From contig JBFFIU010000001.1 in NCBI GenBank assembly GCA_041556275.1, positions 1 through 50,705 on the forward strand: DNA of 50,705 nucleotides. Direction: 5' to 3'. This stretch comes from Anaerolineales bacterium (lineage in GTDB: Bacteria; Chloroflexota; Anaerolineae; Anaerolineales; UBA4823). Made by a program: the position numbers and the translations under genes. The notes under the pieces were generated by a model that was not told the DNA's origin, did no database searches, and saw only the letters and a program-made list of their open reading frames with translations. Position 1 is the stretch's first letter; every line of letters begins with the position of its first letter. Positions 11,128 to 38,922 of this stretch are shown here, piece after piece.

Positions 11128-11178
11128 AATTTCTGATTGATTTCACCAATAAAATGAATAATTCACACATCGGATAAA

Positions 11179-11916: not shown

Positions 11917-11918
11917 GC

Positions 11919-12620: not shown

Positions 12621-12641
12621 TGCTTTTAAGCGAGGGTGCTT

Positions 12642-12662
12642 GGGAGCTGGGGCGCTGGGGAG
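12642..12662. repeat. Left arm of the imperfect inverted repeat flanking the four-helix-bundle gene
   Basis: GGGAGCTGGGGCGCTGGGGAG matches the reverse complement of 13143-13163 (GGAAGCTGGGGAGTAGGGGAG) at 17 of 21 positions. Confidence 0.4.
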
Positions 12663-12710
12663 AAATAAGAACAGGTCATGAACATCAATAAATCCTATAA
12701 TTATCTATTA

Positions 12711-13100: not shown

Positions 13101-13142
13101 GCTTTTTACTCCATTTATTACACTCTATACCGATCACCCTCG

Positions 13143-13163
13143 CTCCCCTACTCCCCAGCTTCC
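13143..13163. repeat. Right arm of the inverted repeat flanking the four-helix-bundle gene
   Basis: See 12642-12662. It overlaps the last codons and the stop of the 670-aa upstream gene. Confidence 0.4.
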
Positions 13164-15160
13164 TGGCTCCCCTGCTCCCTGTCTCTCTGACCCCCTGGCT
13201 CCTCAGTTGCCTCGCTACCCATCAACTCCTTGATTCTGGCTTTAAGCTCGGAGCGACGTTTTTGGTATGCCTCCTGCGGTAACTTACCGGCCTTATACTG
13301 ATCATCCAGGGCAAGGATGGCATCAAAGAGCATATCCAAATCATCGCCATTCTCTCCAGCGGGATATTCACCATCAGCGTCGTATTCACGCTCTTCCGGT
13401 CTTTCTTTGCGTGAACGGGTATAGAGCCAGACACCAGCCACGATGAGGACGACGCCAAATGCCACCAGGCCAACCACGAGGCTCGAATTTGAACCAATGG
13501 CCAACCCTAATCCCCCTCGTGGGCGCCCAGAAATATCAATTGCCAGATCGGTTCCCGCCTCGAGTCGTCCGCTGGAATACAAATGGTAGGGGATTCCCTG
13601 CACATCGCGAGTGCCCATATCACGCAGCTGGTCACCACTGACTCTAAGCCCATCTTCCGGAAGCAAAACAACCACCGCATCAACTGGGACATCAAGAGGC
13701 CGGATGAAATCCAGCTTGCTTTTGTAGGGCACATCATAGGAATATACAACCTGGTGTTGACCCATTCCAGGTCGAATCACTGCCACATCTCCAAATCCAT
13801 TTTGGGTTTGAATGTATCGCTCTCCGACGACACCATCCTCGAATTGCAAGTTGGTGGCGCCCTGCGGTAAATTAAAGGACAACACGGGTTTTCCGTTTTC
13901 GGGAGCCACCACGATCTCATTTCCAGGATTAGAAATGATGTACATCTCGACCACTCTCAATATATCGGGCTCGAGATAACTAAATAAAAGGTGCAGGCGA
14001 TCGACGGATAATATGGAGGTGTCGGTGGTCGTTTCAAAGTAAGGGATCACCAGGGCCAGATTGGATGTGTTTTCATCAACCACGGAGATATCGGAGCTAT
14101 AGCCCATTTCTTGATAGTTTACAGTGGCGAGAAAAGTACGTCCCGGAGGCATCTCCACGTTTTCGAATATGAATTCTCCTTCGGGGCCTGCGTCAATCTC
14201 TGCGAAGAAAGTTTGCTGCATCTGATCGAATCCATGCAGTGACACTGTGAGGTTCGACGGGATATCACCTCCAGAGGCGCTGACCACTTGCCCCTCAACC
14301 ACTCCCATACCAGAGGCTTCTTCTGTCGCCAGAGGAGTACTAGGCGTTTGGGTATTTGATGACCCTGTTGGCGGCTCAGGAGTACCCTGGCTAGAGATAC
14401 CCGCAACTGGTGAAAGGAATGTTTGAGAACGCAAATAAGCAGTTAAAGCCCAACGCTCCTCTGGGGACAATTGCTCACCAAAGGCAGGCATCGTCGGTTC
14501 ATCTCCATCACTGATCACCTGAAAGAGCTGTTCATCTGTGATGTTAGCCATATATTCCTGATCGATGAGGTTTGATGGATTAGCGGAAAGATCCGCTGCT
14601 TCAGGTCCGTCCCCTATGCCACCCTCCCCATGACAAGGGGCACAGTTGATTTGATAAACCTCTTCACCCAGGGTTACTGTCTCAGGGTTATTGCTCAGGC
14701 TGAAAAGGTAAGCGGTCACATCCCAACGCTGCCGGTCAGTGAGACTATTAAATGGGGGCATCCGTCGTTCTATATTGCCATTAGTGATAATTGCATACCA
14801 ATCGGCTGGTGATGAAGAGCGAGCCAAATCTACAGTTCCTATTGCCGGCGGAGGAAAAGGCAATTCATCGGCCATTTCTCCATTTCCCAATCCATCGACA
14901 CCATGGCAGGGAGCGCATTTCTCGGCATAAATTTGCGCTCCAGCAGATGGGTCAGGATGAACCATCGGGTAAAGGGGCCCCTCAGGAAGGGGTTGTGAAG
15001 GTTCTATAACCGGCACTTCAGCACCAGGTGGAGGAGTGATATCCTCAGCTAAAGAAAATGAACATGCCGATAAGAACAAGAGGCCAGAAAAGGTGAGGAT
15101 CAGGGTATATACAGCAGAATTCCGAAAACAGATTTTGAGCAGAGCTCGGTTGTCATTCAT
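13148..15160 (-). CDS. Diheme cytochrome c lipoprotein with a large beta-rich periplasmic domain, a C-terminal TM helix and a CcmI-like cytoplasmic tail
   Basis: Lipobox FLSAC. Two class I heme motifs (CAPCHGVDGLGNG, CAPCHGEGGIGDG). TM helix LVVGLVAFGVVLIVAGVWLY. The tail LALDDQYKAGKLPQEAYQKRRSELKARIKEL resembles the CcmI N-terminal-domain motif. Confidence 0.7.
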   Translation of the reverse strand: MNDNRALLKICFRNSAVYTLILTFSGLLFLSACSFSLAEDITPPPGAEVPVIEPSQPLPEGPLYPMVHPDPSAGAQIYAEKCAPCHGVDGLGNGEMADELPFPPPAIGTVDLARSSSPADWYAIITNGNIERRMPPFNSLTDRQRWDVTAYLFSLSNNPETVTLGEEVYQINCAPCHGEGGIGDGPEAADLSANPSNLIDQEYMANITDEQLFQVISDGDEPTMPAFGEQLSPEERWALTAYLRSQTFLSPVAGISSQGTPEPPTGSSNTQTPSTPLATEEASGMGVVEGQVVSASGGDIPSNLTVSLHGFDQMQQTFFAEIDAGPEGEFIFENVEMPPGRTFLATVNYQEMGYSSDISVVDENTSNLALVIPYFETTTDTSILSVDRLHLLFSYLEPDILRVVEMYIISNPGNEIVVAPENGKPVLSFNLPQGATNLQFEDGVVGERYIQTQNGFGDVAVIRPGMGQHQVVYSYDVPYKSKLDFIRPLDVPVDAVVVLLPEDGLRVSGDQLRDMGTRDVQGIPYHLYSSGRLEAGTDLAIDISGRPRGGLGLAIGSNSSLVVGLVAFGVVLIVAGVWLYTRSRKERPEEREYDADGEYPAGENGDDLDMLFDAILALDDQYKAGKLPQEAYQKRRSELKARIKELMGSEATEEPGGQRDREQGSQEAGE

Positions 15161-15201
15161 ATGCAGTACTTCACCGATAAGGAGATTTTCACGCTATCCC
15201 G

Positions 15202-15750
15202 CTAGACAAGGGGCTTACCACAACTGGGACAGAAACTATCCGAGGATTGGACCGGGCGACCACATTGGGGACAAAACCCAGCAGATTTATCCTGGCGAGA
15301 ACGCCGCCGGGCAGCCAGCTGGATTTCTACTTCGTCATCCGCCTGTATGGCTACCTGGGTTCCCCCAGCTGCACCAACACCAACAACTTGATTCGAAACT
15401 GCACGGCGTTCGGCAATTGCTGCCTCGACCCGTTCATCCAAATCGTTGTTTGGGGTGACCGCGCCATATTCATCCAATTGGCGCAAGACATCGGCTCCCC
15501 GTTGAAGCAGGAGACTTCGTTGAGCAGGATACTCATCCTCAGGGATCTTCCCCAAGGCATGATCAAAATCCAGCTCTTGTAGGGCGTTCAGCACGCGATC
15601 CTGTTCTGCCAGCAATGTGGACACCTCATGTTCCGTCTGGTCATCCTCATGAGCATTACCGGGAGCATCCCGATCAAAAAGTGGACGGGCGATGAATAAC
15701 CCAATCAAAATTAATAAGGCCAGCAAAAAAAGAATTGAGCCAATATCCAT
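15202..15750 (-). CDS. Membrane-anchored CcmI-N-terminal-like protein with a C-terminal zinc ribbon
   Basis: N-terminal TM helix, then LLAEQDRVLNALQELDFDHALGKIPEDEYPAQRSLLLQRGADVLRQL (CcmI-type L-x-EL-x-D-x3-G-x-I pattern). The C-terminus is FCPQCGRPVQSSDSFCPSCG. Confidence 0.5.
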   Translation of the reverse strand: MDIGSILFLLALLILIGLFIARPLFDRDAPGNAHEDDQTEHEVSTLLAEQDRVLNALQELDFDHALGKIPEDEYPAQRSLLLQRGADVLRQLDEYGAVTPNNDLDERVEAAIAERRAVSNQVVGVGAAGGTQVAIQADDEVEIQLAARRRSRQDKSAGFCPQCGRPVQSSDSFCPSCGKPLV

Positions 15751-15792
15751 GACGGTTTAATGCGCTTTCACTTTCATTTTGAAAATCCCGGG

Positions 15793-16401
15793 TTATGAAT
15801 CAAGCAGGGGATCGATCATTCCCTGGATCTCATTCAGGGAGACAAAGGGCGAGATTTTAAATGCGGCCAGTTTTCCATCTTTGCCGATGATATACGTCTC
15901 AGGTACACCGCGAATGCGATAAGCCTGAGAGATTTGCGTACGCAGATCGGGGCCATTGGGGTAGGTTATATCGAACTTCTCCAGATATGCCATCGCTTCC
16001 GTTTCAGTATCGACGTAATCCACACCCAGGAAGACGACGTCACCACGCGGCTCGTACATACGCCAGGCTGTTTCCAGTTCAGCAGCCTCCTCTTCGCATG
16101 GTTTACACCATGAAGCCCAAAAATTTACCACCACTACCTTGCCATCGAGATCCTTTAAGCTGATCTGATCACCATCAAAGGTAGTAAGGGTGAAATTCGG
16201 AGCGGTTTGACCGACTGATACAGGACCTTCCTGTGTTCTCAGCAAGCCAACAGCCAATAGCGTCAAAAGGCCGAATACAGCGATCCAGGCGACCAAGGCT
16301 CCAATGGAGAGATTCAATCCAAATGCGTTGACTCGCCCTGTTTTCTTGGTCGATTCAGGGGCGGATTCCGTATTTAAGGGGGTGGGATGAGTTTCAGTCA
16401 T
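15793..16401 (-). CDS. ccmG: Thiol:disulfide oxidoreductase CcmG/DsbE (TlpA/ResA family)
   Basis: TM anchor plus VVVNFWASWCKPCEEE (CxxC thioredoxin fold). Confidence 0.85.
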   Translation of the reverse strand: MTETHPTPLNTESAPESTKKTGRVNAFGLNLSIGALVAWIAVFGLLTLLAVGLLRTQEGPVSVGQTAPNFTLTTFDGDQISLKDLDGKVVVVNFWASWCKPCEEEAAELETAWRMYEPRGDVVFLGVDYVDTETEAMAYLEKFDITYPNGPDLRTQISQAYRIRGVPETYIIGKDGKLAAFKISPFVSLNEIQGMIDPLLDS

Positions 16402-16436
16402 ACTCAGATTCTATGCTCCTAGGATGCGACCAAAAG

Positions 16437-16934
16437 CTAACGCCGGCGCAGTTCTTCCTCGATGCGAGCCACATATTCATCCTGGGTTTCACTCTCAGGA
16501 AGATCTTGTACCGGACTAGATGGAGAGGATTTCCTCCACGAGCGCATGGCTCGATATAGGACATAACCTCCAGCGATGAATACCAGCGGAGGGATCACAT
16601 ACACCAGCCAGTTTAAGCCGCGAGCCGGAGGCGAGGCTAAGACTCGGTCTCCATACTGGTTGACGAAATAAGTCTTGATCTCATCTTCCGTCCAACCTTG
16701 AGAGATTTTCTCTCCGATCAAAGCCCGCCATTGAGCGCAAGCTTGAGTTGGGCACACATCCAGGGGGATATTCTCGCAAACTGGGCAGTAGAGCTGTTTG
16801 GCGATCTCATTGATCTGGTCATCGGTTGGTTCGGAAGGAGCCGCCTCCTGGGCCTGCACTGCACCAAACGGCAGGAAAGAAAAAATCAATCCGAGGATCA
16901 AAAAAGCCAAGGCAAACGTCTTATTCTTGCCCAT
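16437..16934 (-). CDS. ccmH: Cytochrome c biogenesis protein CcmH (NrfF-like)
   Basis: Signal peptide, LYCPVCENIPLDVC (CxxC), YFVNQYGDRVLASPP, and a C-terminal TM helix. Confidence 0.85.
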   Translation of the reverse strand: MGKNKTFALAFLILGLIFSFLPFGAVQAQEAAPSEPTDDQINEIAKQLYCPVCENIPLDVCPTQACAQWRALIGEKISQGWTEDEIKTYFVNQYGDRVLASPPARGLNWLVYVIPPLVFIAGGYVLYRAMRSWRKSSPSSPVQDLPESETQDEYVARIEEELRRR

Positions 16935-19018
16935 TATGCCTTTGCCGCCACGTAGCCAGTTTGTTTTGCAGACATGCGGACCGACTCGGGATCGCGGTCA
17001 GGCCAGGCCGCAACCAGCGTCCCAATGATAAACACGAATCCACCCAACCAGAGCCAATTAACCAGGGGATTGTGGTAGATCTTAAAGGTAGCTCCAGCGG
17101 TTGATATCGGTTGCCAATCCACCAGCAGGACGTAAAAATCATCCTCCCATGTACTCCGCACGCCCGGAATGGTCATGGGTTGCTGTGATTCGTAATAATA
17201 ATCACGGCGTGGGTAAAGTTCTCCAACAAATTGCCCGTTTTTATCGACGGAGACCACCGCCCGTGCGACATTGCGACCATCATCCGTATCAAATGCAGCC
17301 AGCGAATTGAAGGTGAGCGTGTAATCACCCAGGGCGATCGTCTCGCCTTGCGGGATAGTCCCCTGGGTCTCTGACTGGAAGATCTCGATTCCGATAATCC
17401 CGATCGCCATCAGAACTACGCCCAGATGGATGATATAGCCACCGTATCTACGGCGATTGCGTCCTGCCAGACGCCATAATGCAACTGGAAAGCTTTCACC
17501 TGAGCGGCGATGCCGAGCCCGGGCACCACGCCAGAATTCGTAAAGTGTGACTGCAGCCACGAAACTGCACAGCCAGAATCCCAATAAGGCTGCCGGGTTG
17601 CGGGTGCCGCTGACAATAACAACTGCCACCACCACCAGAGAGGCGATGAAAGGTTTCCAGACCGCTCGTCCCAGTGTTTTAGCTGAAGAAAAGCGCCAGG
17701 CCGCCAAAGGCGCAACGCCCATTAGAAGCAGCAGGCCAGCGAATAAAGGGGCGGTCGCCCGTTCGTAGAACGGCGGACCAACGGTGACTTTTTGCCCGGT
17801 GAAGACCTCTGAGATCAGCGGGAAAATCACGCCCCAGAAACAGACGACAAGAATGCCCATGAACAACAGGTTGTTGAGCAGAAACAGTGCTTCTCGCGAT
17901 AAAAGCGAAGTCATTTGCGTTTCCGCCTTGAGATCGTTCCAGCGTTTGAGCAGCAGCGAGAGGGATACAACAAAAGTAAGACCCATGAAGGCGAAGAAAA
18001 CCGGCCCAATTGCACTCTGGGCGAATGCATGCACGGAGGAAAGCACACCAGAACGAGTGAGGAAGGTGCCGAAGATCACCAGCTCATAGGTCAGGATGAT
18101 CAGGATCATATTCCAATGTTTCAACATGCCCCGTTTCTCCTGGATCATGACCGAATGCAGCAAAGCTGTTCCAGTTAACCAGGGCATAAAAGCAGCGATC
18201 TCCACCGGATCCCAGCCCCAATAACCACCCCAACCGAGGACATCATAGGCCCACCGACCCCCAAGTATCAGACCAAGCGAGAGGAACAACCAAGCAACCA
18301 GCGTCCAGCGGCGGGTGATGCGGATCCAGCGGTCATCAGTCCGGCCAGTGACCAGCGCGGCGATGGCAAAAGCATAAGGGATCACAAAAGAAACAAATCC
18401 CAGGTAAAGCATAGGCGGATGGATGATCATCCCTGGATGGCGCAGGAGCGGATTCAATCCGCTTCCATCAGCAGGTTTGAACAATACCGAGCCAGCTGGC
18501 TGCAGCATGGAAGTCGTAATTTCCCCAGCAGGAGTCTGCCAGATACGGACGAAGGGATTTTCGATAAAAACACTCAACCCGAGGAAAAAAGCCAGCGTGA
18601 CGAGGGAAACGATGATCACCCAGGGTAAGAATTCCTGATCACGCTTCCACTTGCGCAGGGTTACCGCCGAAGCAAAAGCAGCCAGCAGCCAGGACCAAAA
18701 GACGAGCGATCCCGGTTGCCCTCCCCACAATGCGGTGACCTTCAGGTAAAAGGGCATGCTGTTGCTGGTGACCGTGGCTACATAATTAACTTCATAGGCA
18801 TTGGAAACCAGGAGATAAATAATGCATAAAGCCGATACTGTTACTAAGGGAAAAGTCAGCAGCATAGCATTGCGCGCGCTGGCAACCCAGGTATGCTCTC
18901 CTCTGCGAGCGCCGTAGTAGGCAGCACCAATGCCGTAAAGAGAGATCAAAAAAGTGATAACGAGTGCCCCATATCCAATATTAGCAACCATAAAAGGCTT
19001 CACCTCTGTTACATGCAA
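16934..19018 (-). CDS. ccmF: Cytochrome c heme lyase subunit CcmF
   Basis: 694 aa polytopic protein with the WWD motif WGGYWGWDPVE. Confidence 0.95.
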   Translation of the reverse strand: MHVTEVKPFMVANIGYGALVITFLISLYGIGAAYYGARRGEHTWVASARNAMLLTFPLVTVSALCIIYLLVSNAYEVNYVATVTSNSMPFYLKVTALWGGQPGSLVFWSWLLAAFASAVTLRKWKRDQEFLPWVIIVSLVTLAFFLGLSVFIENPFVRIWQTPAGEITTSMLQPAGSVLFKPADGSGLNPLLRHPGMIIHPPMLYLGFVSFVIPYAFAIAALVTGRTDDRWIRITRRWTLVAWLFLSLGLILGGRWAYDVLGWGGYWGWDPVEIAAFMPWLTGTALLHSVMIQEKRGMLKHWNMILIILTYELVIFGTFLTRSGVLSSVHAFAQSAIGPVFFAFMGLTFVVSLSLLLKRWNDLKAETQMTSLLSREALFLLNNLLFMGILVVCFWGVIFPLISEVFTGQKVTVGPPFYERATAPLFAGLLLLMGVAPLAAWRFSSAKTLGRAVWKPFIASLVVVAVVIVSGTRNPAALLGFWLCSFVAAVTLYEFWRGARARHRRSGESFPVALWRLAGRNRRRYGGYIIHLGVVLMAIGIIGIEIFQSETQGTIPQGETIALGDYTLTFNSLAAFDTDDGRNVARAVVSVDKNGQFVGELYPRRDYYYESQQPMTIPGVRSTWEDDFYVLLVDWQPISTAGATFKIYHNPLVNWLWLGGFVFIIGTLVAAWPDRDPESVRMSAKQTGYVAAKA

Positions 19019-19089
19019 TGCGTGAAACGCATTATCAATTGCATTTCACGCATCAGTAGATCAATCAAAAACGAAACCCTGACAATACA

Positions 19090-19602
19090 CTAACCCTCAG
19101 ACTGCCCTGGAACCGCTTCTTCATATTTCGTAGGACATTTAAGCAATAACTCATCGGCATAGAACACGCCATCATCACCGAGCTCGCCGGTCATAATGGC
19201 TTGCGCTTCGTGTCGTAAAAGATCGGGTTTAACCCCAACATAAACTACTTGCATTTTAGTCCTGTCCGGATCAAGGACCGCGGCATGCAGGACTTCTGCC
19301 AGACCACCCTGGGCTTCGATATCTTTATTATCCCCAGGCACATGGGCTACTGTGAACTTCAATGTCAACGTTTGGGGATCATACTCTACTGAGTCACCGA
19401 TAACAGCTCCTGAAACACGCACATCCCGCCCAATGTCACCAGCTTCCCGGGAAGCCAATTCGTCAACGGTGAGGAAATACTGCGCGCTGGCTTGCGTCGA
19501 AGTCACGATGAGGTATACAATCGCTGCGACGATCAACAGTCCACCCACAATGAATTTGGCGCGGCCGCCAGTTTTTACTTGAGATGAAACGGGTTGTTCC
19601 AT
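19090..19602 (-). CDS. ccmE: Heme chaperone CcmE, Cys-type (CxxxY) variant
   Basis: TM anchor, OB-fold-like body (YFLTVDEL..., VRVSGAV), and a C-terminal LLLKCPTKYEE where canonical CcmE has LAKHDENY. I preferred the ATG at 19602 (GGAGGAG RBS) to the TTG at 19623. Confidence 0.85.
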   Translation of the reverse strand: MEQPVSSQVKTGGRAKFIVGGLLIVAAIVYLIVTSTQASAQYFLTVDELASREAGDIGRDVRVSGAVIGDSVEYDPQTLTLKFTVAHVPGDNKDIEAQGGLAEVLHAAVLDPDRTKMQVVYVGVKPDLLRHEAQAIMTGELGDDGVFYADELLLKCPTKYEEAVPGQSEG

Positions 19603-19720
19603 ATATTGCTCCTCCGTCACCAACTTTTATCGTATTGTCCTGTTACAACTCTTAATTCTGTCACACCTAGATTAAAGCAACCTGAGAGAATACCAAATTA
19701 AGCATGAGAGTGCGATTAAT

Positions 19721-22167: not shown

Positions 22168-23427
22168 ATGATGAAAACCTTGAAATTTGTTTTGATGATT
22201 GGCAGCTTGTTGATCATAATCGCTGCACTGGCAGCTTGCGGAGGGCAAGATGGTCCGCAAGGGCCTGCAGGTCCCGTTGGTCCACCTGGTCCAGATGGTC
22301 CGCATGGCCCTACCGGACCCGAAGGTCCGGTAGGGCCAGCTGGTGCTGAGGGGGAGACTGGCACTGGTGTGACAGGGGCTGAGTATGTAGGCAGCGCTAC
22401 ATGCGGCGGTTGCCACAAGGATACTTACGATACCTTTATTCAATCCGGTCACCCCTGGAAATTGAACCCTGTGATCGACGGACAGCCTCCAGATTACCCT
22501 TTTACAGGTTTACCTGAATTACCAGAGGGTTACACCTGGGATGATATTTCTTACGTGATTGGCGGATACAACTGGAAAGCCCGCTTCATTGACCAGGATG
22601 GCTACATCATCACAGACGAACCTGGCGCTTCAGGCAATGAAGAGTATCTCAACCAGTACAATTTCGCTAACCCGATCGTGGGCACCGAAGCCGGTTGGGT
22701 GACCTACCACTCAGGTGAATTAGAGAAGCCTTATGACTGCGGCGCATGCCATACGACCGGTTACAGCCCCAACGGCAACCAGGACGACCTGCCGGGCCTG
22801 GTCGGGACCTGGGCTGAACCTGGCATCATGTGCGAGGAATGCCACGGTCCGGGAGGCATGCACGTTAAAAACCCGCAGGGTGTTCAAATGACCATCGACC
22901 GAGATGCGGAGCAGTGCGGCAAATGCCATAGCCGCGAGGAGATCGAATCGGTCAATGCCAGCGGTGGCTTTATCCGTCACCACGAACAATATGAGGAGCT
23001 CTTCCAGGGTAAGCACATCGCCCTGGACTGCGTGATCTGCCACGATCCTCATCAAGGCGTCGTGCAGCTGCGCCAGGCAGGCATTCAGACCACGCGCACA
23101 CAGTGCGAGAACTGCCATCTTGATGAAGCGCAATTTCAGAACTCGCTAATCCATCCTGCTGCAACGGAGTGCATCGACTGCCACATGCCGCGCATCGTCC
23201 TGTCTGCGGTAGGTGACCCGGAGAAATTTACTGGCGACATCCGCACCCACCTGATGCGCATCAACCCCACCCAGATCGAGCAGTTTACCGAGGATGGCAG
23301 TGCCTCCCTTTCAGAGATCGGGCTGAATTTCGCCTGCCGGCACTGTCATGGCGTGACTGCCTCGGAAAAGAGTGACGAAGAATTGATCGAAAATGCAACT
23401 GATTACCACACGCCAACGGAGGAGTAA
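22168..23427 (+). CDS. Octaheme cytochrome c lipoprotein with an N-terminal collagen-like Gly-X-Y stalk
   Basis: Signal peptide and lipobox LAAC. 13 uninterrupted GXY triplets. 8 CXXCH motifs (CGGCH, CGACH, CEECH, CGKCH, CVICH, CENCH, CIDCH, CRHCH). Confidence 0.85.
22243..22359 (+). repeat. Collagen-like triplet repeat (13 x Gly-X-Y), coding
   Basis: [39 protein letters not shown]. Confidence 0.85.
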
Positions 23428-23536: not shown

Positions 23537-25246
23537 ATGAAAAGGTTCTGGCAAAGAATAAGGAATACTTTTAAGAATTTCTTCTTTCCTCCACCTGGTT
23601 CTCCTCGCTGGGCGCGAGTATTACCTTATGCTGTTCTGGGTATCTTAACTTTGATCGTGTTGACCGGGGCAGTTTTCGGCTGGGAATACACCAATTCCCC
23701 CCAATTCTGCGGCACAGCTTGCCACACCATGCCACCCGAATTCACAAGTTATCTGATCTCCCCCCATGCCCGCGTTGACTGCGTCGACTGCCATATCGGT
23801 AAGGGCTTTCTCGCCACGCGTGTCTCCCGCAAGGCTGGCGATCTCCGCCACATCGTCGCCACCACCTTCAACACCTACGAGTTTCCCATCCGGGCTCACC
23901 AGCTGCAGCCCGCCCGGGAGACCTGCGAGAAATGCCATTTCCCAGAGAAGTTCTCCGATGACAGTTTGCGTGAGATCAAGCAATTTAGTTCGGATAAAGA
24001 TAATACACCCCTGTCAACATTTTTAGTGCTCAAGACGGGCGGGGGCAGCAAACGCCAGGGGTTGGGGCGCGGCATCCACTGGCATATCGAGAATAAAATC
24101 GAGTACCTGCCCATCGATCCCGAAGAACAGGTGATCCCCTACGTGCTGGTGCATGAAGATGACGGCACGATCACGGAGTACGTGGACGTCGCATTTGATC
24201 TTGATCCCAACGATATCGATCCGGATGACCTGGTGGAGATGGACTGCATCACCTGCCACAACCGCATCACCCACCTGGTGAAGACACCAGAAGCGACGGT
24301 TGATGAGATGCTCAACCGCGGCATCATCGATCCGGAAATCCCCGATATCCGCCGCCAGGCGGTCGAAGCCTACAGCCAGATCTATGAAACCACTGAAATT
24401 GGCCTGGAAGGCATTGCCGGTATCGCCAGTTATTACCAGACATACTACCCTGAATATTACGCTGAAAACCAGGAAAAGGTCGCTGATGCCATCCTTGCCC
24501 TGCAGGATGCCTACGGCCAAAGCGTTTTCCCCGAGCAGAATTCCGACTGGACCACCCATCCCAATAACATTGGACATCAGGATTCTCCTGGATGCTTCCG
24601 CTGCCACGGCGGCACACATTTGAACGCCGAAGGGGAAGCTATTCGCCTGGAGTGCAACCTGTGCCACTCCATCCCGGTTGTCGCCGGTCCGGGTGATTTT
24701 GTATCCGAGATCGAGATCAGCCGCGGGCCGGAGCCCGACTCGCACAAGAATCCAAATTGGATCAGCATGCACCGGGATGTCTTTGACCCGACCTGCTCCA
24801 ACTGCCACACAATCGATAATCCTGGTGGGACGGACAATAGTTCCTTCTGCTCGAATACCGCCTGCCACGGCAGTGTCTATGAGTACGCCGGTTTCGATGC
24901 TCCAGGCCTGCGGGCGATATTGCGCGAACAACTTCCCCCTGAACCAACACCGATTCCACTGGCCGAGGGTGAAGCGATCACCTATCAAACCAGGATTGGT
25001 CCTATGTTCGAAAGCAAGTGCGGGGCATGTCACAGTGAGTCGAACAGCCTGGCAGGATTGGATCTGACAAACTATGAGGGCGCTTTGGAAGGCGGAGAGA
25101 GCGGCGCGGTGATACTCGCCGGTGACCCTGAAAACAGCCGATTGATCATCATTCAAAACAGTGACGAACCCCATTTCGCCCAACTCACAACTGAGGAATT
25201 GGACTTGGTCGTGGATTGGATCGCCAACGGAGCAGCGGAGAATTAA
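23537..25246 (+). CDS. Membrane-anchored NapC/NirT/NrfH-like multiheme cytochrome c (up to 9 hemes) with a C-terminal PSCyt1-like heme domain
   Basis: N-terminal TM helix (VLPYAVLGILTLIVLTGAVFGW). 7 CXXCH (CVDCH, CEKCH, CITCH, CFRCH, CNLCH, CSNCH, CGACH), plus CGTACH (CX3CH) and CSNTACH (CX4CH). Confidence 0.8.
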   Translation: MKRFWQRIRNTFKNFFFPPPGSPRWARVLPYAVLGILTLIVLTGAVFGWEYTNSPQFCGTACHTMPPEFTSYLISPHARVDCVDCHIGKGFLATRVSRKAGDLRHIVATTFNTYEFPIRAHQLQPARETCEKCHFPEKFSDDSLREIKQFSSDKDNTPLSTFLVLKTGGGSKRQGLGRGIHWHIENKIEYLPIDPEEQVIPYVLVHEDDGTITEYVDVAFDLDPNDIDPDDLVEMDCITCHNRITHLVKTPEATVDEMLNRGIIDPEIPDIRRQAVEAYSQIYETTEIGLEGIAGIASYYQTYYPEYYAENQEKVADAILALQDAYGQSVFPEQNSDWTTHPNNIGHQDSPGCFRCHGGTHLNAEGEAIRLECNLCHSIPVVAGPGDFVSEIEISRGPEPDSHKNPNWISMHRDVFDPTCSNCHTIDNPGGTDNSSFCSNTACHGSVYEYAGFDAPGLRAILREQLPPEPTPIPLAEGEAITYQTRIGPMFESKCGACHSESNSLAGLDLTNYEGALEGGESGAVILAGDPENSRLIIIQNSDEPHFAQLTTEELDLVVDWIANGAAEN

Positions 25247-25358: not shown

Positions 25359-25841
25359 ATGGAAGATAAAGAGCAGCTGAGCCGGCGGAATTTCTTAGCC
25401 ATCGCCACCGGAGCGATCGGGGGATTGATCGGCGTTGTCCTGGCGATTCCTGCAGTGGCTTACGTTGTCGGCCCCGCTTTACAGCGGACAAGAGCAGAGA
25501 ATTGGATCAGGCTCGGACCAACCTCGAAAGTCGAGCTCGGAACTCCCACTCTCTTCAAGGCCGTTGTTGAAAGCCAAACCGGGTGGATCCTGTCCGAGGA
25601 AGAACTCGCAGTTTATGTCCTCACAGAAGACGGGCGTGATTATATCGCTCTATCGAATATCTGCACTCACCTAGGCTGCCGGGTGCGTTGGATTACCGAT
25701 CAAGGTCAATACTTTTGCCCCTGCCACAACGCGGCCTTTGACAAAACTGGTCTGGTTGTATCTGGTCCTCCACCCGAACCTCTTGATCGCTATGAGACAA
25801 AGGTTGAGGATGATCAGTTGTATATCTTGTTGGGAGGTTGA
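25359..25841 (+). CDS. Rieske 2Fe-2S protein with a Tat signal
   Basis: RRNFLAIATGA, CTHLGCRV and CPCHNAAF boxes, AAGGAGG RBS. Confidence 0.9.
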   Translation: MEDKEQLSRRNFLAIATGAIGGLIGVVLAIPAVAYVVGPALQRTRAENWIRLGPTSKVELGTPTLFKAVVESQTGWILSEEELAVYVLTEDGRDYIALSNICTHLGCRVRWITDQGQYFCPCHNAAFDKTGLVVSGPPPEPLDRYETKVEDDQLYILLGG

Positions 25842-25842
25842 A

Positions 25843-26502
25843 ATGAGTGCGAGTTTGGGAAACTGGCTCGATGAACGCATCGGTTGGCGGAAGGTGTGGG
25901 ACGCCATATTCTTGCGTAAGATCCCCAAAGTAAATTGGTTCTATACCCTGGGCAGCGCCACGCTATTCATGGCCGCTTTACAGGGCATTACCGGGATCCT
26001 GCTGACGATCTACTATGTGCCCACACCAGATCACGCATACGACAGCGTGCAGTTTATCACCACCCAGGTGCCGGGCGGGTGGTTTGTGCGCGGCATCCAC
26101 CACTGGGGAGCCAGCGCGATGGTGCTGTTGACCGTCCTGCACATGGTACGTGTCATTATGTACGGTGCATACAAGTACCCCCGCGAGGTGACCTGGTTCA
26201 CCGGCGTGGGATTATTGCTCGTGGTGATGGGCTTTGGTTTCACCGGTTATCTCTTACCTTGGGACCAGAAAGCATATTGGGCAACTGTTGTCGGCACCCG
26301 CATCGCCGGAGTCGCGCCGCTGATCGGGGATCCGATCTTACGAATCATGCGCGGTGGTGAAGATTTATCAGCCGTCACCCTAGCGCGCTTCTTCGGCACC
26401 CATGTCTGGGTCCTGCCAACGATACTGCTGCTGCTGCTTGGGATCCACATGTACCTCGTCATCCGGCTTGGCATCAGCGCTGTTCCTCGCAGGGAGGATT
26501 AG
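25843..26502 (+). CDS. Cytochrome b, N-terminal (b6-like, 4-TM) subunit
   Basis: MSASLGNWLDERIGWRKVW..., WFYTLGSATLF, RGIHHWGASAMV..LH. The ATG at 25843 is 1 nt after the Rieske stop. The track start at 25738 overlaps the Rieske gene. Confidence 0.9.
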   Translation: MSASLGNWLDERIGWRKVWDAIFLRKIPKVNWFYTLGSATLFMAALQGITGILLTIYYVPTPDHAYDSVQFITTQVPGGWFVRGIHHWGASAMVLLTVLHMVRVIMYGAYKYPREVTWFTGVGLLLVVMGFGFTGYLLPWDQKAYWATVVGTRIAGVAPLIGDPILRIMRGGEDLSAVTLARFFGTHVWVLPTILLLLLGIHMYLVIRLGISAVPRRED

Positions 26503-26505
26503 GAT

Positions 26506-28623
26506 ATGGACGAAAAAGAGCGACAAGAATATCTGGAGCAGTATAAAAAAGAGAAGGAAAAGGGCGTTCCCTTTTTCCCGGACATCCTTTTCAAAGATGC
26601 GGTCATCTCCCTGGTGATCTTCATCATCCTGGTGGCTTTAGCCTATTTTATCGGCGCGCCGTTAGAACCACGGGCGGATCCAGCTGATACCACCTACACT
26701 CCCCGACCTGAATGGTACTTCTTGTTCCTATTCCAACTGCTGAAGTACTTCCCGGGAGCATTGGAAGTAGTTGGTGTTTTTATCATCCCGTCAGTAGCAG
26801 TCATCTTATTGATCGCCTTACCCCTGATCGACCGTTCTCCCAAGCGGCATTTCCTACGCAGGCCAGTGATCTTGGTAGCAACGATCCTGAGTGTTATTGG
26901 CGTTCTTTTTCTTACCATTCAATCGAATCGAGAGATACCCCCACCCCTGGAAATCGTCGGGGGCGACCAAACCGCCGTCTTGTATACAGAAAATTGTGCA
27001 CCCTGTCATGGCCCGTCGATGGCTGTCCCAGCAGGTGTCAATTTGCATGACATCATTGCTCAAGGCCAGCATGAGGACATGCCCGGCTGGAGCGGTGATC
27101 TCACTACGGATGAGATCGATGCCCTGGCAGGTTTTATTATCTCTCCAGCGGGAAGCCAGCTCTTCACCGACAATTGCAGCGAATGCCATGAGGTTACTGA
27201 GCTGGTTGCCAGCAACCCGCTCGTCTTGAGAGAATCCATCCAGCGCGGATTGGAATTTGAACCTCATGCGGAGCTGGAAATCCCCGATTGGAGCGAAACG
27301 ATCAGCCAGGAGAACCAGACCAAGCTGCTCAACTTCCTGGTGGCACCGGATGGTCAACGTCTCTTCGCCACCAACTGTGCCCCGTGTCATGGTCAGTCCG
27401 TTGCAGTAGCCGGGGGCGAGGAGCAGTTATTGGAGATCATCAGCCAGGGTGGATTGCACCTGGAAATGCCGCCCTGGAGGGACATGTTGAGCGATAGCGA
27501 TTTGGATCTCCTGGCCAGATATGTTACCGACCCCGCAAGTGTACCTGAAGGCGCGCAGACTTTTGAAAACAACTGTTCTGGCTGCCATGCGAATCGCATT
27601 CCCTCCGCTGGAGATGTTGAGACCGCCCGGCAGATCATCGCTGAAGGTGGCGGACACGAAACTATGCCCGTCTGGGGTGAGGTGCTCACTCCTGAGCAAC
27701 TGGACGCCTTAGTCACTTTCACTCTCGCTGCCGCAGAAGGCACCTCCGTGGAGATCGGTCAAGAAATCTACACGCAAAATTGTGTGCCTTGTCATGGCGA
27801 ATTCGGAGAAGGCGGCCCCAACCCCTCTCGCGCTGGAGATATCATCTTCCCTATCAGCACCGAGGAATACCTGAAAACAAGAGATGACTTCACCGTGCGC
27901 TCAATCATTGCTCAAGGTCAGCCGAATTTCGGCATGTCGCCTTTCGGCAGTAGCTTTGGTGGACCTTTGCAGGACGAAGAAATTGATGCCGTTGTAGCTT
28001 TCATCCGGTCCTGGGAAGCCAATCCGCCGGTGGAATTGCCTCCAGAAATCGTTGTTGCCGTGGAGGATACACTGGCACTGGACACGAAAGATATCTATGA
28101 CCAGCTGTGCTCACAATGCCATGGTTTAAATGGAGAAGGTGGTATTGGACCATCATTTATGGACTCCGAATTTCATGACAACATAACCGACAACCAACTT
28201 TTCGAAGCTATAAATGTTGGACATGAGGCAACCTCAATGATCGGTTGGGGTGATGTTCTAAGTGTTGATCAGATCCAGCAAATGGTCCTGCTTATTCGCC
28301 AATTTAGATCTTCACCGGTTGCAGGTCAACCAACAACTGCGGAAGTATCCTTTTCCGAAGATGTGATGCCTATCTTCGAGGCTGATTGTATTGCTTGCCA
28401 CGGAAATTTTGGGGGCTGGGATGCCAGCAGCTATACCAGTGTGTTAGGCACAGGTAACAACGCTCCAGTGGTCATACCCGGTGATCCAGAGAACAGTCTT
28501 CTCGCTCAAAAGATGACCGACACTCAATCTATTGGACAGATAATGCCTCCAGCCGGATTATTGCCTGATGATGAAGTACAAGTTGTCCTGGATTGGATCG
28601 CAGCAGGTGCACCTGATAATTAA
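26506..28623 (+). CDS. Cytochrome b subunit IV-like domain fused to seven c-type heme domains
   Basis: The N-terminus has PRPEWYFLFLFQLLKYFP (the subunit IV / cyt b C-terminal signature) and 3 TM helices. It is followed by CAPCH, CSECH, CAPCH, CSGCH, CVPCH, CSQCH and CIACH, each in a class-I-like context. Confidence 0.85.
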   Translation: MDEKERQEYLEQYKKEKEKGVPFFPDILFKDAVISLVIFIILVALAYFIGAPLEPRADPADTTYTPRPEWYFLFLFQLLKYFPGALEVVGVFIIPSVAVILLIALPLIDRSPKRHFLRRPVILVATILSVIGVLFLTIQSNREIPPPLEIVGGDQTAVLYTENCAPCHGPSMAVPAGVNLHDIIAQGQHEDMPGWSGDLTTDEIDALAGFIISPAGSQLFTDNCSECHEVTELVASNPLVLRESIQRGLEFEPHAELEIPDWSETISQENQTKLLNFLVAPDGQRLFATNCAPCHGQSVAVAGGEEQLLEIISQGGLHLEMPPWRDMLSDSDLDLLARYVTDPASVPEGAQTFENNCSGCHANRIPSAGDVETARQIIAEGGGHETMPVWGEVLTPEQLDALVTFTLAAAEGTSVEIGQEIYTQNCVPCHGEFGEGGPNPSRAGDIIFPISTEEYLKTRDDFTVRSIIAQGQPNFGMSPFGSSFGGPLQDEEIDAVVAFIRSWEANPPVELPPEIVVAVEDTLALDTKDIYDQLCSQCHGLNGEGGIGPSFMDSEFHDNITDNQLFEAINVGHEATSMIGWGDVLSVDQIQQMVLLIRQFRSSPVAGQPTTAEVSFSEDVMPIFEADCIACHGNFGGWDASSYTSVLGTGNNAPVVIPGDPENSLLAQKMTDTQSIGQIMPPAGLLPDDEVQVVLDWIAAGAPDN

Positions 28624-31489: not shown

Positions 31490-32824
31490 ATGCTTCGTAA
31501 ATTCACTTTTATAACAATGCTTATTTTTGCTACACTGCTGTTAGCGGCTTGTGCTGGTGATCAAGGTCCCGAGGGGCCTGAGGGACCACCAGGACCCGCA
31601 GGTCCAGCTGGAGCTCAAGGCCCAGAAGGTTCACCAGGAACCGAGTTGACTGAAGATCAACTTGCGGCACTGGAAACTGCAGGCAATTTGGCTGGCATTC
31701 AGTTTCCGACTTTAGATGAGGTGCGTAGAGGTTGTCCGGCCTGCCATGTACTGGTAGATGAGGAAACTGGACAATATACACTTCCATATGAGGCTCACGA
31801 AAGGGCTGAAGCTCGTGGAGAAGAACATCCGGAGACTGCTCCAGATGGAACCTCGCTCGCAGCAACAGAGGAAGTTAATGTCACAACTTGCTTGCAATGT
31901 CACGCAGCCGGCACCGGTGATCGGGCTGGAAAAGGGGTCATTGCCCCACTGGCATTGCGTGATATCGTCCATCCTGCACACATGTACAGCCAGTGGTTTA
32001 AACTTCACTACGGCGGTAACTGCTTCACTTGCCACAATGTAGATGGTGAAGGCAATTGGGAATTGCTTACCGAAAAAGTTGAAGTGAATGAGAAAGGCGT
32101 CCCTGACCCGGATGCAGTGCCGATCCCGGGCGCCATTGCGATTGGTGGAGCACCATCATTATCAGGTTCAGTGGCCGCTGGCGGGAGATTGTACGACAAA
32201 TGGTGGAAAGAAGTTGGAGTAGACGAACCCAGTACGGACCAACCCTTGTGGGCTTCTCAAACCACCAACACCCGCAGTGGTGGCGACACCTGGCGTTGCA
32301 AAGAATGTCACGGGTGGGATTACAAGGGTGCCGACGGCGCTTATGGTTCTGGTTCCCACTTCACTGGTTTCCCTGGTGTGTTTGATGTCCAATCAGAATC
32401 CTTTGACACGATCGTAGCTTTTATTGATGGAAGCGCTAATTCGGATCACGACTTTTCAGCAATGGGTGATGAGGCTATCAATGACCTGGCGGCTTTTCTT
32501 TCTACTGGTCTTGCCGACTACGCACCCCTAATAAATGCCGAGACGAAAGCAGCCAACGGTGGCGACACCGCAAATGGCGAGTCTCTCTATGCTGCTTGTT
32601 CTGCTTGCCATGGAGAAGATGGGCGCTTGATCAATTTCGGAGATGACGACGATCCAACATACGTTGGTACTGTCGCCTTAGATAACCCTTGGGAGTTTCT
32701 GCATAAGGTACGCGCTGGTCAGCCTGGTACTGCTATGCCAGCCTCCCTTGATGCGAACTGGAGTATGGATGACTTGCTAGACCTGTTAGCTTTCTCCCAG
32801 ACTCTACCAACCGAGGTACCTTAA
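31490..32824 (+). CDS. Pentaheme cytochrome c lipoprotein with an N-terminal collagen-like Gly-X-Y stalk
   Basis: The ATG at 31490 follows a GAGGAGG RBS. Lipobox LAAC, 10 GXY triplets, and CPACH, CLQCH, CFTCH, CKECH, CSACH. Confidence 0.8.
   Translation: MLRKFTFITMLIFATLLLAACAGDQGPEGPEGPPGPAGPAGAQGPEGSPGTELTEDQLAALETAGNLAGIQFPTLDEVRRGCPACHVLVDEETGQYTLPYEAHERAEARGEEHPETAPDGTSLAATEEVNVTTCLQCHAAGTGDRAGKGVIAPLALRDIVHPAHMYSQWFKLHYGGNCFTCHNVDGEGNWELLTEKVEVNEKGVPDPDAVPIPGAIAIGGAPSLSGSVAAGGRLYDKWWKEVGVDEPSTDQPLWASQTTNTRSGGDTWRCKECHGWDYKGADGAYGSGSHFTGFPGVFDVQSESFDTIVAFIDGSANSDHDFSAMGDEAINDLAAFLSTGLADYAPLINAETKAANGGDTANGESLYAACSACHGEDGRLINFGDDDDPTYVGTVALDNPWEFLHKVRAGQPGTAMPASLDANWSMDDLLDLLAFSQTLPTEVP
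31556..31645 (+). repeat. Collagen-like triplet repeat (10 x Gly-X-Y), coding
   Basis: GDQGPEGPEGPPGPAGPAGAQGPEGSPGTE. Confidence 0.8.
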
Positions 32825-33424: not shown

Positions 33425-33431
33425 TAATGAA

Positions 33432-38913: not shown

Positions 38914-38922
38914 TGAGAAAAT

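Follow-up and report, generated by a model that had tools for sequence, protein, structure and literature searches.

Three plus-strand genes of the window (here, the whole analysed stretch of 50,705 nucleotides) encoded multiheme cytochrome c lipoproteins with a collagen-like stalk. ORF1 (22168-23427; 419 aa), characterised by translation, homology and Foldseek, was an octaheme protein. It opened with a signal peptide and an L-A-A-C24 lipobox (22168-22239), the cysteine of which was kept by 90 % or more of the 116 sequences in the alignment. The first-pass annotation had placed 13 Gly-X-Y triplets at 22243-22359, after LAAC-G, and eight CXXCH motifs further on; translation confirmed both and extended the run by a fourteenth triplet, GTG, ending at 22368. 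The heme domain (22369-23424) displayed an OcwA/MccA-like fold according to phmmer and Foldseek. ORF1 contained 17 cysteines, of which one belonged to the lipobox and 16 to the heme-binding CXXCH motifs.

The same module had been claimed to recur at 31490 and 40314 in front of five and six CXXCH, and this was also borne out by translation. ORF2 (31490-32824; 444 aa) was a pentaheme protein, in whose head a triheme portion on the N-terminal side preceded two C-terminal class-I c domains similar to TsdA. Its longest reading frame started at 31448, and the ATG at 31490 was preceded, 6 nt upstream, by a GGAGG Shine-Dalgarno sequence. From this ATG the product read MLRKF...LLLAAC(21)-A (L-A-A-C at residues 18-21), followed by a tract of ten triplets (31556-31645); a conserved segment of 29 residues separated the tract from the first CXXCH. 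ORF3 (40314-41378; 354 aa; translation and Foldseek) was a hexaheme protein. Its ATG at 40314 had a GGAG Shine-Dalgarno 8 nt upstream and its product read ...LALAAC(22)-ASQE (L-A-A-C at residues 19-22), followed by 12 triplets (40392-40499). The lipobox cysteine was invariant among aligned ORF3 homologues. In all three proteins L-A-A-C came after a K/R-containing N-region and a hydrophobic core, which is the signal pattern of bacterial lipoproteins; lgt and lspA were absent from the window. A six-frame scan of the window revealed no other genuine Gly-X-Y run of five triplets or more, matches on the minus strand being antisense shadows of the three tracts.

The stalked genes were adjoined by genes of electron transport and cytochrome c maturation, in an arrangement that was syntenic. 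Directly downstream of ORF1 lay a membrane multiheme cytochrome of the NrfH/NapC type (23537-25246, plus strand; Pfam PF03264, TIGR03153 NrfH), likely the quinol-side electron donor to ORF1. An NrfH-type gene was found 0.1-3.2 kb downstream of ORF1 homologues in ~28 of 60 eligible loci. It was followed by a bc-type complex (25359-28623, plus strand; translations and synteny) consisting of a Rieske protein, a cytochrome b and a product that joins the C-terminal portion of cytochrome b to several c-type domains. ORF2 and ORF3 flanked an Alternative Complex III block (32909-39969, plus strand; Pfam NrfD and ActD) with ActA, a split ActB, ActC, ActD, ActE and a triheme c lipoprotein (38923-39969), the linker of which was Pro-rich and not of the Gly-X-Y type. 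Upstream of ORF1, the minus strand carried a system I cytochrome c maturation cluster (10283-19623; ORF translations) reading CcmC, B, A and, further on, H, G, F, E; CcmE and CcmF were syntenic upstream of ORF1 homologues. The three stalked cytochrome genes occurred together in a conserved cluster, both in the window and at three other loci (L002, L004 and L006). Outer-membrane proteins are missing from Anaerolineae genomes (PMC6013643).

A homology search gathered 3113 ORF1 homologues, and a search with the ORF1 family profile gave 27198 hits to the head family at E up to 0.001. ORF1-family relatives were present in 287 species-level genomes, mostly Anaerolineae; the association with cytochromes was widespread and not confined to one genome. 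Among lipobox-bearing homologues, an uninterrupted run was displayed by 115 out of 117 members of the ORF1 family (9-21 triplets), by all 73 of the ORF2 family (8-18 triplets) and by all 102 of the ORF3 family (8-23 triplets). The triplet register, which the first-pass annotation had made a test of its proposal, was not shifted in any of ~290 orthologues from three unrelated heme-domain families, and lengths differed by whole triplets only. The sole interruption seen was a single Gly-to-Ala replacement that left the register intact. In ~90 % of the homologues the tract began one residue past the lipobox cysteine. An alignment of ORF1 homologues showed the tract glycines G32 to G47 to be invariant and G26, G29, G50, G53 and G56 to be at least 90 % conserved; a core, GPAGPPGPEGPQGPPG, was kept in this family beyond the Gly positions alone. 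Stalk length was family-specific within one genome: ORF1-type proteins had 13-15 triplets, ORF2-type proteins 10 and ORF3-type proteins 9-14.

At the DNA level, the three tracts of the window were only 62-66 % identical in register, with a third-codon-position identity of 0.29-0.48, in agreement with the earlier statement that they differ in DNA sequence. Tandem Repeats Finder detected weak 9-nt and 27-nt periodicities only. Across 74 species-level orthologous tracts, the identity of Gly codons was 1.00, 1.00 and 0.26 at positions 1, 2 and 3, all four Gly codons being present; for all tract codons pooled, the values were 0.72, 0.77 and 0.28. Since the first two positions of the Gly codons are fixed while the third varies, selection acts on the protein and not on a DNA repeat. 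The triplet module is thus under protein-level selection, as was suspected at first reading.

The module was also searched for regardless of the head, by means of a DNA pattern for A-C-A-G-xx-(GPx)4 applied to metagenomes, a pattern which favours some lipobox and tract sequences. In this survey, 85 of the 100 complete ORFs were CXXCH proteins, among which 60 had six hemes, 16 had eight and 4 had five; non-cytochrome heads carried the module less often. Seven-heme relatives displayed a Gly-X-Y tract preceded by a transmembrane-helix anchor, a position that fits a juxtamembrane stalk. Distant relatives of the ORF1 head had far longer, KGD-rich tracts of 27-41 triplets; the longest (P0366) ran for 41 triplets without a break and contained seven KGD motifs. 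KGD and KGE sequences form interchain salt bridges and are a known stabiliser of the triple helix (PMC7824840). The linkers of TsdA-like four-heme paralogues were non-periodic and rich in Pro, Thr and Glu.

The Pfam collagen profile (PF01391) scored 24.9, 21.6 and 26.1 bits on ORF1, ORF2 and ORF3, against a gathering score of 27.2 and with a model of 60 residues that exceeds the tract length; most homologues carried a precomputed match to this profile. In NCBIfam and PDB searches, the tract matched SclA, SclB, Lcl and BclA. Position X was occupied by Pro in 61-73 % of the triplets of orthologue tracts, and position Y chiefly by Ala, Glu, Gln and Pro. Across bacterial collagens Pro at X amounts to ~19 % (PMC8968730), and Pro in this position stabilises the triple helix (PMC7824840). 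The tracts were short (24-42 residues, 30-42 in the window proteins); those of the window were net acidic and contained neither Lys nor Arg and no stabilising Lys-Gly-Asp/Glu pairs. They probably lack hydroxyproline. In bacterial collagen devoid of hydroxyproline, stability grows with length up to ~150 residues (PMC7824840); because of this dependence, an isolated helix of the size of the tract could be marginal unless anchors or heads help. No adjacent trimerisation domain such as the V domain of Scl was recognised in the window proteins. Trimers might be nucleated by the lipid anchors, by the heme heads with their MccA-like fold or by the 29-residue segment of ORF2 following the tract. AF2 monomer models of ORF1 and ORF3 were uninformative on the stalk (tract pLDDT 30-45), the heads reaching a pLDDT of 71-74.

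The ORF1 head matched OcwA (6i5b) with a phmmer E-value of 3e-17, and ORF1 residues 69-261 aligned to an extra beta-sheet domain of OcwA, which is common to MccA and OcwA (PMC6703420). Foldseek retrieved MccA, OcwA and the S-layer cytochrome OmhA for this head, each with a probability of 1.0 and a TM-score of 0.43-0.46, MccA being the best match (E=1.5e-9). For the ORF3 head, the top match was OcwA (3.4e-5, probability 1.0). The AF2 model of ORF3 showed long C-terminal helices (277-294, 311-327 and 335-348), to be compared with the C-terminal three-helix bundle of OcwA, whereas that of ORF1 showed short helices only. On the basis of these matches, and with models of moderate confidence, both heads are assigned to the OcwA/MccA class of the NrfA/OTR/MccA/OcwA superfamily.

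OcwA from the Gram-positive Thermincola potens (PDB 6I5B) and OmhA from Carboxydothermus ferrireducens (6QVM) are both cell-surface multiheme cytochromes of monoderm hosts, and their heme domain is related to that of ORF1 (for OcwA also to that of ORF3). OcwA has been proposed to act as a terminal reductase beyond the cytoplasmic membrane (PMC6703420), and OmhA is assigned to the S-layer by the title of its 6QVM entry. OcwA has nine hemes and its C-terminal bundle, occurs as monomer or dimer and has no described collagen-like stalk; ORF1, in contrast, has eight hemes, is shorter and would be lipid-anchored via its Gly-X-Y tract. The octaheme sulfite reductase MccA of Wolinella succinogenes (4RKM/4RKN) has eight hemes, as ORF1. 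MccA is reportedly a homotrimer, a state that would suit a three-chain stalk; it is, however, soluble, periplasmic and stalkless, and its TM-score to the ORF1 head is only ~0.46. A trimeric head is not guaranteed, because OcwA purifies as monomer or dimer and NrfA-type enzymes are dimers. The signatures of the class are the CXXCK heme of NrfA and the CX15CH heme and Cu-binding Cys of MccA (PMC6703420 and, in part, general knowledge). Inspection of the ORF1 and ORF3 sequences revealed no CXXCK; ORF1 also differs from MccA in having no CX15CH and no spare Cys for a copper site, all its cysteines being accounted for. A heme with open coordination as in OcwA may be present in both.

The general plan, in which a linker connects a membrane anchor with a c-type heme domain, is that of Rhodobacter cytochrome cy and of the lipoprotein c-type cytochromes of Gram-positives and heliobacteria. 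Tethered carriers of the cytochrome cy type are monomers with flexible, non-periodic linkers and shuttle electrons between membrane complexes. The same plan, with linkers rich in Pro and Thr, is seen in the triheme c lipoprotein of the window and in the TsdA-like paralogues; ORF1, ORF2 and ORF3 share it but differ by a strictly Gly-X-Y periodic linker, and such strict collagen periodicity would imply a rigid three-chain rod. The proposed design is in principle that of class A scavenger receptors and MARCO, collectins, C1q, collagen XIII and ColQ-tailed acetylcholinesterase, in which a short collagen helix trimerises the globular heads and projects them from an anchor in membrane or matrix. These eukaryotic proteins have hydroxyproline, transmembrane or matrix anchors and ligand-binding or hydrolytic heads; homology to the proteins described here is limited to the repeat, and the present heads would carry electrons. 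The 29-residue segment of ORF2 sits where collectins have their 'neck'. Among bacteria, Scl1 and Scl2 of Streptococcus pyogenes and BclA of Bacillus anthracis likewise combine an uninterrupted, hydroxyproline-independent Gly-X-Y stalk with a globular head into a 'lollipop' (PMC8968730). They differ in being attached by a C-terminal LPXTG motif or within the exosporium, and in bearing adhesin heads on tracts that are mostly far longer and rich in Thr or charged residues; the stalked cytochromes have 8-23 triplets and a multiheme redox head, and their lipid would be N-terminal, directly before the tract. As presumed in the first-pass annotation, no description of collagen-stalked cytochromes was found in full-text searches of the openly accessible literature.

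Taken together, the probable explanation, put forward with a fair degree of confidence, is a stalk in the form of a collagen triple helix which is fixed to the membrane by lipid, joins the protein into trimers and keeps its multiheme head at a distance from the membrane. The first-pass annotation had likewise proposed a trimerising and/or spacing stalk, of roughly 9-11 nm, that may reach across a wall, S-layer or sheath as part of an electron conduit. The proteins would be exported, and the lipidated N-terminal Cys of each would hold it on the outside of the cytoplasmic membrane. The 10-14 Gly-X-Y triplets, mostly Gly-Pro-Y, would start 1-5 residues past this anchor, and the lipids would concentrate three chains on the membrane so that a collagen triple helix could wind. 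The resulting stiff acidic rod would measure about 8.6-12 nm (0.86 nm per triplet) and would carry three heads at a set distance above the membrane, each assembly comprising 15-24 hemes. The product would probably be a rigid three-chain rod with heme clusters ~8-12 nm off the membrane. In a monoderm cell, such heads may receive electrons from the neighbouring quinol-oxidising membrane modules (NrfH-type cytochrome, Rieske/cytochrome b complex, Alternative Complex III) and may then deliver them from one complex to another, or to outside acceptors that lie within the wall or past it. A triple helix would be recognised by a CD maximum near 220 nm, a cooperative melt and protease resistance (PMC8968730).

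The best surviving alternative is a monomeric spacer, in which the tract is an extended polyproline-II-like or disordered tether that gives reach, with no trimer involved. The tracts are indeed short and Pro-rich, AF2 shows no structure there, their length varies from 8 to 23 triplets among orthologues, the closest solved head (OcwA) is monomeric or dimeric, and tethering by linkers is common in the clade. A single chain, however, has no need of Gly at every third residue, yet no register break occurred in ~290 orthologues from three families, and the Gly codons are absolutely constrained at the protein level while their synonymous sites are saturated. Paralogues of the same organisms use non-periodic Pro/Thr/Glu linkers, so that a plain spacer can do without Gly-X-Y, and the long variants with 27-41 KGD-rich triplets also argue against a lone chain. 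The monomeric spacer is accordingly held to be unlikely, albeit to be taken seriously. A generic lipoprotein linker was discarded, as the other lipoproteins of the window and the paralogues display non-periodic linkers or none.

If three chains do associate, they could in principle be those of ORF1, ORF2 and ORF3, as the A, B and C chains of C1q do, which would unite the 8-, 5- and 6-heme heads in one 19-heme complex. The conserved clustering of the three genes in the window and at the three other loci is in line with such a heterotrimer, as are the LAAC lipobox and the Gly-Pro-Y chemistry common to all three. The unequal, family-specific stalk lengths (13-15, 10 and 9-14 triplets) nevertheless argue for separate homotrimers and disfavour an obligate mixed trimer. 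The tracts also offer no charge complementarity, being all acidic and devoid of Lys and Arg, and the six-, eight- and five-heme proteins are unequally abundant in metagenomes (60, 16 and 4, with the bias of the pattern). A heterotrimer seems quite improbable.

Little probability is likewise given to the tract being mainly a binding or attachment motif, helical or not, that docks the cytochrome to a further collagen-like protein or to the wall, S-layer or sheath, or that acts as an adhesin like Scl1 and Scl2. The bacterial collagen-like proteins known so far serve as adhesins on the surface or as fibres of the exosporium (PMC8968730), and the ORF1 family conserves GPAGPPGPEGPQGPPG at more than its glycines, which would suit a binding function. 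The tract, however, lies at the membrane anchor beneath the head, which is a poor site for an adhesin; its sequence differs among the three families; and the gene neighbourhood held no candidate partner.

A trimeric, lipid-anchored stalk would have consequences beyond this locus. How multiheme cytochromes are positioned relative to membrane and wall in bacteria without an outer membrane is an unsettled question of the field, with structures only for OcwA and OmhA; a rigid spacer whose length is set by the gene, in steps of 0.86 nm, would be a simple and testable answer. It would concern at least three cytochrome families in Anaerolineae, which are common in sediments, digesters and bioelectrochemical systems. 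It would also extend bacterial collagen-like domains, known from adhesins and spore fibres, to energy metabolism, and provide a compact natural model of a short, hydroxyproline-free, membrane-nucleated triple helix.

A more ambitious version is put forward tentatively and is regarded as doubtful: the stalks, tuned in length per family, may form a wall-crossing electron conduit of monoderm Anaerolineae, made of homotrimeric 'lollipops' with 15-24 hemes. Close orthologues would then have stalks of about 7-20 nm, and those of the distant relatives would reach ~35 nm at most. Such a conduit would be a third route to extracellular electron transfer beside porin-cytochrome complexes and cytochrome nanowires, would help to account for the electroactivity of a lineage abundant in sediments, digesters and on anodes, and would make collagen triple helices structural parts of a respiratory chain.

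The weakest alternative, that the Gly-X-Y region is untranslated or stems from a repeat or assembly error, draws on the JGI gene call for ORF3 (290 aa, with a start downstream of the tract) and can be set aside with near certainty, because that short product lacks the export signal that a c-type cytochrome needs, Shine-Dalgarno and ATG are present at the long starts of ORF2 and ORF3 (GGAG and ATG 40314 ruling out the downstream ORF3 start), signal peptide, lipobox and tract are kept in frame across hundreds of species with a coding-type codon-position signature, and this signature together with the DNA divergence of the three tracts rules out a repeat or assembly artefact. An exact-sequence look-up retrieved no record for ORF1, and a look-up via P0121 led to the source metagenomes and to the shortened JGI call. 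Comparable truncations affected ~18 of 120 ORF3-family database entries, which likewise begin after the tract. Gene callers thus often place the start past the tract, and export signal and stalk are hidden in such annotations.

Three multiheme c-type cytochrome lipoproteins of the window, designated ORF1, ORF2 and ORF3, displayed a run of collagen-type Gly-X-Y (GXY) triplets between lipobox and heme domain (head). ORF1 (22168-23427, plus strand, 419 aa) comprised a lipoprotein signal peptide with L-A-A-C24, one Gly, 13 unbroken triplets (nt 22243-22359), a 14th triplet, GTG, which lengthened the run to 22368, and eight CXXCH motifs; its only cysteines were that of the lipobox and the 16 binding heme. 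ORF2 (start 31490, plus strand, GGAGG 6 nt upstream) displayed lipobox C21, 10 triplets (31556-31645) and five CXXCH. ORF3 (start 40314, plus strand, GGAG 8 nt upstream) displayed lipobox C22, 12 triplets (40392-40499) and six CXXCH. Translation bore out the first-pass annotation, which had reported the 13 triplets and eight CXXCH of ORF1 and the recurrence of the signal peptide, LAAC and GXY module at 31490 and 40314 with five and six CXXCH; as a sequence observation it was right in all details that could be checked. A six-frame scan revealed no further genuine GXY runs of at least five triplets in the 50.7-kb window, where minus-strand matches were antisense shadows of these three tracts. 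Aligned in register, the tracts were 62-66 % identical at the DNA level and 29-48 % at third codon positions, and Tandem Repeats Finder detected weak periodicity only; they are thus neither recent duplicates nor assembly artefacts, in line with the initial proposal. Owing to their shortness relative to the Pfam Collagen model, all three tracts scored 21.6-26.1 bits against it, just below the threshold of 27.2.

The triplet register was strictly conserved. Family ORF1 comprised 3113 homologues, and among the best 120 (63-86 % identical) 115 of 117 lipobox-bearing proteins displayed 9-21 unbroken triplets, most frequently 12-14. Tracts of 8-23 triplets were found in all 102 lipobox-bearing members of family ORF3 and of 8-18 triplets in all 73 five-heme orthologues of ORF2. 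No register shift was encountered among these ~290 proteins, the sole interruption being a Gly-to-Ala substitution that kept the register, and in ~90 % of them the tract started one residue past the lipobox Cys, the predicted lipidation site. In 74 orthologous tracts from species-representative genomes, Gly codons were 100 % identical at positions 1 and 2 and 26 % identical, essentially random, at position 3, with all four Gly codons in use; over all codons, identities were 0.72, 0.77 and 0.28 at positions 1, 2 and 3. Such a pattern marks tracts that diverged long ago, to saturation, while Gly at each third residue stayed strictly constrained in the protein, in agreement with the selection at protein level initially suspected. 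Nor was the association confined to one genome: 287 species-level genomes encoded ORF1 relatives, and almost all of them bore the label Anaerolineales, Anaerolineae, Promineifilaceae or Caldilineae; a few Spirochaetota or Methanosarcinales labels probably reflect mis-binning.

Related lipoproteins provided a control. TsdA-like four-heme paralogues of the C-terminal half of ORF2 are also lipoproteins, with non-periodic, Pro/Thr/Glu-rich linkers (34 examples); within the window, the linker of a triheme c lipoprotein (38923-39969) was Pro-rich and non-GXY, and a solute-binding lipoprotein (43613-44629) displayed none. These organisms thus do not use GXY where a plain tether suffices. In five seven-heme relatives of ORF2 (P0325, P0338, P0342, P0343 and P0348; 657-665 aa) an N-terminal transmembrane helix replaced the lipobox and was directly followed by 9-11 triplets.

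A head-blind DNA pattern, Ala-Cys-Ala-Gly-x-x-(Gly-Pro-x)4, biased to this lipobox and to Gly-Pro-x, gave at least 123 matches on metagenome contigs. Among the matches listed, 85 of the 100 ORFs complete at their 3' end contained CXXCH (60 six-heme, 16 eight-heme, four five-heme and one ten-heme, the remainder displaying one to three motifs). The 15 CXXCH-free ORFs included a recurrent small family and a few spurious frames, besides single instances of a metallo-beta-lactamase-fold protein and of a 1107-aa protein. Lipobox and GXY tract therefore form a portable stalk module, overwhelmingly but not exclusively carried by multiheme cytochromes. The recurrent small lipoprotein (contigs L081, L093, L122, L133, L140, L150 and L180) consisted of a lipobox, 8-17 triplets and an unannotated C-terminal domain of ~86 residues ending in ...GWRYY(V/I/L)xAMW, with two conserved Cys and no Pfam match, which may be a small trimeric head. 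Other heads, on contigs L120 (336-), L102 (769-), L194 and L091, were the metallo-beta-lactamase-fold domain (PF13483), the 1107-aa repetitive protein, a C-terminal transmembrane helix and a Thr/Gly-rich repeat domain with a 43-triplet tract.

A profile of family ORF1, searched against 1.84 billion representative proteins, retrieved 27198 relatives with E of 0.001 or less, 380 of them with E of 1e-30 or less. Of the best 150 of these 27198, 28 displayed at least six triplets; in the others, the N-terminus was an ordinary signal peptide or a different domain, or the head was duplicated in tandem. Some of these distant relatives of the ORF1 head carried long stalks, such as P0382 with 27 triplets and P0366 with 41 unbroken triplets and seven Lys-Gly-Asp motifs. 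As KGD and KGE form interchain salt bridges stabilising the triple helix (PMC7824840), such stalks argue for a true collagen-like domain in this family. Several further distant relatives (among P0396, P0412, P0420, P0426, P0434 and P0492) displayed after the GXY run a Cys-bracketed acidic motif, C-W-D-L-(D/N)-x-(D/N)-G...D-C, which resembles calcium-binding DxDxDG loops and could be a disulfide or calcium knot stapling the helix end. Tandem-duplicated versions of the ORF1 head (P0032, P0035, P0068, P0361-P0363) displayed 15-16 hemes in about 715-750 aa, with a maximum of 32 hemes in 1398 aa; these proteins lacked a GXY tract.

Residues 69-261 of ORF1 matched OcwA of Thermincola potens (PDB 6I5B) by sequence (E=3e-17). 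OcwA is a nonaheme terminal reductase found on this Gram-positive organism's surface, belongs to the NrfA/MccA structural class and was purified as a monomer/dimer mixture (PMC6703420). With the AF2 model of ORF1 (pLDDT 70.7), Foldseek retrieved MccA (octaheme sulfite reductase), OcwA and OmhA (S-layer undecaheme cytochrome), each at probability 1.0 and TM about 0.45; for ORF3 (pLDDT 73.8), OcwA was the best and only significant match. ORF2 was composed of a triheme N-terminal part and two class-I c-type domains, of the type annotated by JGI as thiosulfate dehydrogenase. The ORF1 protein sequence differed from NrfA in lacking its CXXCK motif and from MccA in lacking spare cysteines for a copper site, so no known enzymatic specificity can be assigned to ORF1; it is safer to infer a role in electron transfer or a broad reductase activity like that of OcwA.

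The best-supported reading of the three tracts is that of triple-helical stalks, in which three lipid-anchored chains would wind together from the membrane surface upward and carry three multiheme heads atop each stalk; for these proteins we infer lipidation, helix formation and stoichiometry as well as the direction in which electrons flow. A monomeric semi-rigid tether, the main rival, may apply instead but leaves the absolute Gly periodicity unexplained, and we know of no single-chain linker requiring Gly at every third residue. Triple helix packing does, Gly being buried on the helix axis (PMC7824840). Tract composition fits a triple-helical stalk, with Pro at 61-73 % of X positions (compared with about 19 % for bacterial collagens as a whole, PMC8968730), Ala, Glu, Gln or Pro at most Y positions and almost no basic residues; an anionic membrane surface would presumably repel such an acidic rod. 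Taking 0.86 nm per triplet (PMC7824840), the stalk of ORF1 would measure about 11-12 nm, that of ORF2 8.6 nm and that of ORF3 10.3 nm, with 7-20 nm predicted for close orthologues. Weighing against the triple-helical reading, the window tracts are short and presumably hydroxyproline-free; bacterial collagen without hydroxyproline gains stability as it lengthens, up to about 150 residues, and Scl2 melts near 36 °C (PMC7824840, PMC8968730). Stable helices would therefore need the aid of membrane anchors or heads. No trimerisation domain was recognised in ORF1, ORF2 or ORF3, and the AF2 monomer models of ORF1 and ORF3 were silent on the stalk. Unlike the three-chain cytochromes proposed here, OcwA is not a trimer; MccA is one. 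If the stalks are triple-helical, separate homotrimers, each of its own height, are favoured over a heterotrimer mixing the three chains, since triplet numbers were family-specific and unequal within one genome (ORF1-type 13-15, ORF2-type 10, ORF3-type 9-14).

Each component was known already, collagen-like stalks from bacteria on the one hand and multiheme cytochromes that are tethered or lie on the cell surface on the other. That respiratory proteins combine the two in a conserved design appears undescribed, as first supposed: the full-text literature searched offered nothing relevant on collagen-like or Gly-X-Y stalks on multiheme cytochromes or in Chloroflexi/Anaerolineae, and the word 'cytochrome' is absent from a 2022 review of prokaryotic collagen-like proteins. 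Database relatives were named 'hypothetical protein', 'c-type cytochrome' or 'multiheme c-type cytochrome'. The module was concealed because gene callers often begin ORF3-type genes beyond the tract; ~18 of 120 family ORF3 entries lacked the N-terminus in the manner of the JGI call for ORF3 (P0121). This 290-aa call begins at an internal Met, leaving ~536 nt labelled 'intergenic' (window 39970-40313 plus 40314-40505; L201-L203), although Shine-Dalgarno site, signal peptide, lipobox and GXY tract all lie within this stretch.

The window constitutes a respiratory island. Its genes for system I cytochrome c maturation (Ccm) are followed, in this order, by a histidine kinase/response regulator pair that is divergent, ORF1, a membrane multiheme cytochrome of NrfH/NapC type, a Rieske protein, cytochrome b and the C-terminal part of a cytochrome b with several c domains fused to it, another kinase/regulator pair, ORF2, Alternative Complex III (ACIII) with a split ActB, a triheme c lipoprotein and ORF3. 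The complete order was also found in three homologous loci (L002, L004 and L006), and more distant ORF1 homologues kept the upstream two-component pair in about 30 loci. An NrfH-like gene lay 0.1-3.2 kb downstream of ORF1 homologues in ~28 of 60 eligible loci, sometimes separated from them by genes for another multiheme protein and for a membrane cytochrome of b type; this synteny ties ORF1 to quinol-oxidising membrane modules. In more distant loci such as L032 (3052-5372), the inserted genes encoded a membrane multiheme cytochrome of 388 aa and a b-type membrane cytochrome that ends in a PSCyt1 tail. Genes for bc complexes and ACIII are present in published Anaerolineae genomes and those for outer-membrane proteins are absent (PMC6013643), which agrees with a monoderm envelope.

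Within the window, the cytochrome b C-terminal part (26506-28623) was fused to five or six class-I c-type domains and a PSCyt1 (planctomycete cytochrome C) domain, and the NrfH-like protein (23537-25246, 569 aa) also ended in PSCyt1; together they are an unusually heme-rich bc-type module. The ActB gene was divided into two ORFs (33432-36342), a molybdopterin-like and an FeS part, overlapping at 35605-35645. An NhaA-type Na+/H+ antiporter (4911-6770, 619 aa) displayed a fused N-terminal DsbA/thioredoxin-like domain. Two minus-strand membrane proteins, one within the Ccm cluster (15202-15750) and one just past ORF3 (41773-42732), each ended in CxxC...CxxC zinc-ribbon motifs; the former adjoined a diheme c lipoprotein of 670 aa that carries a transmembrane helix at its C-terminus (13148-15160).
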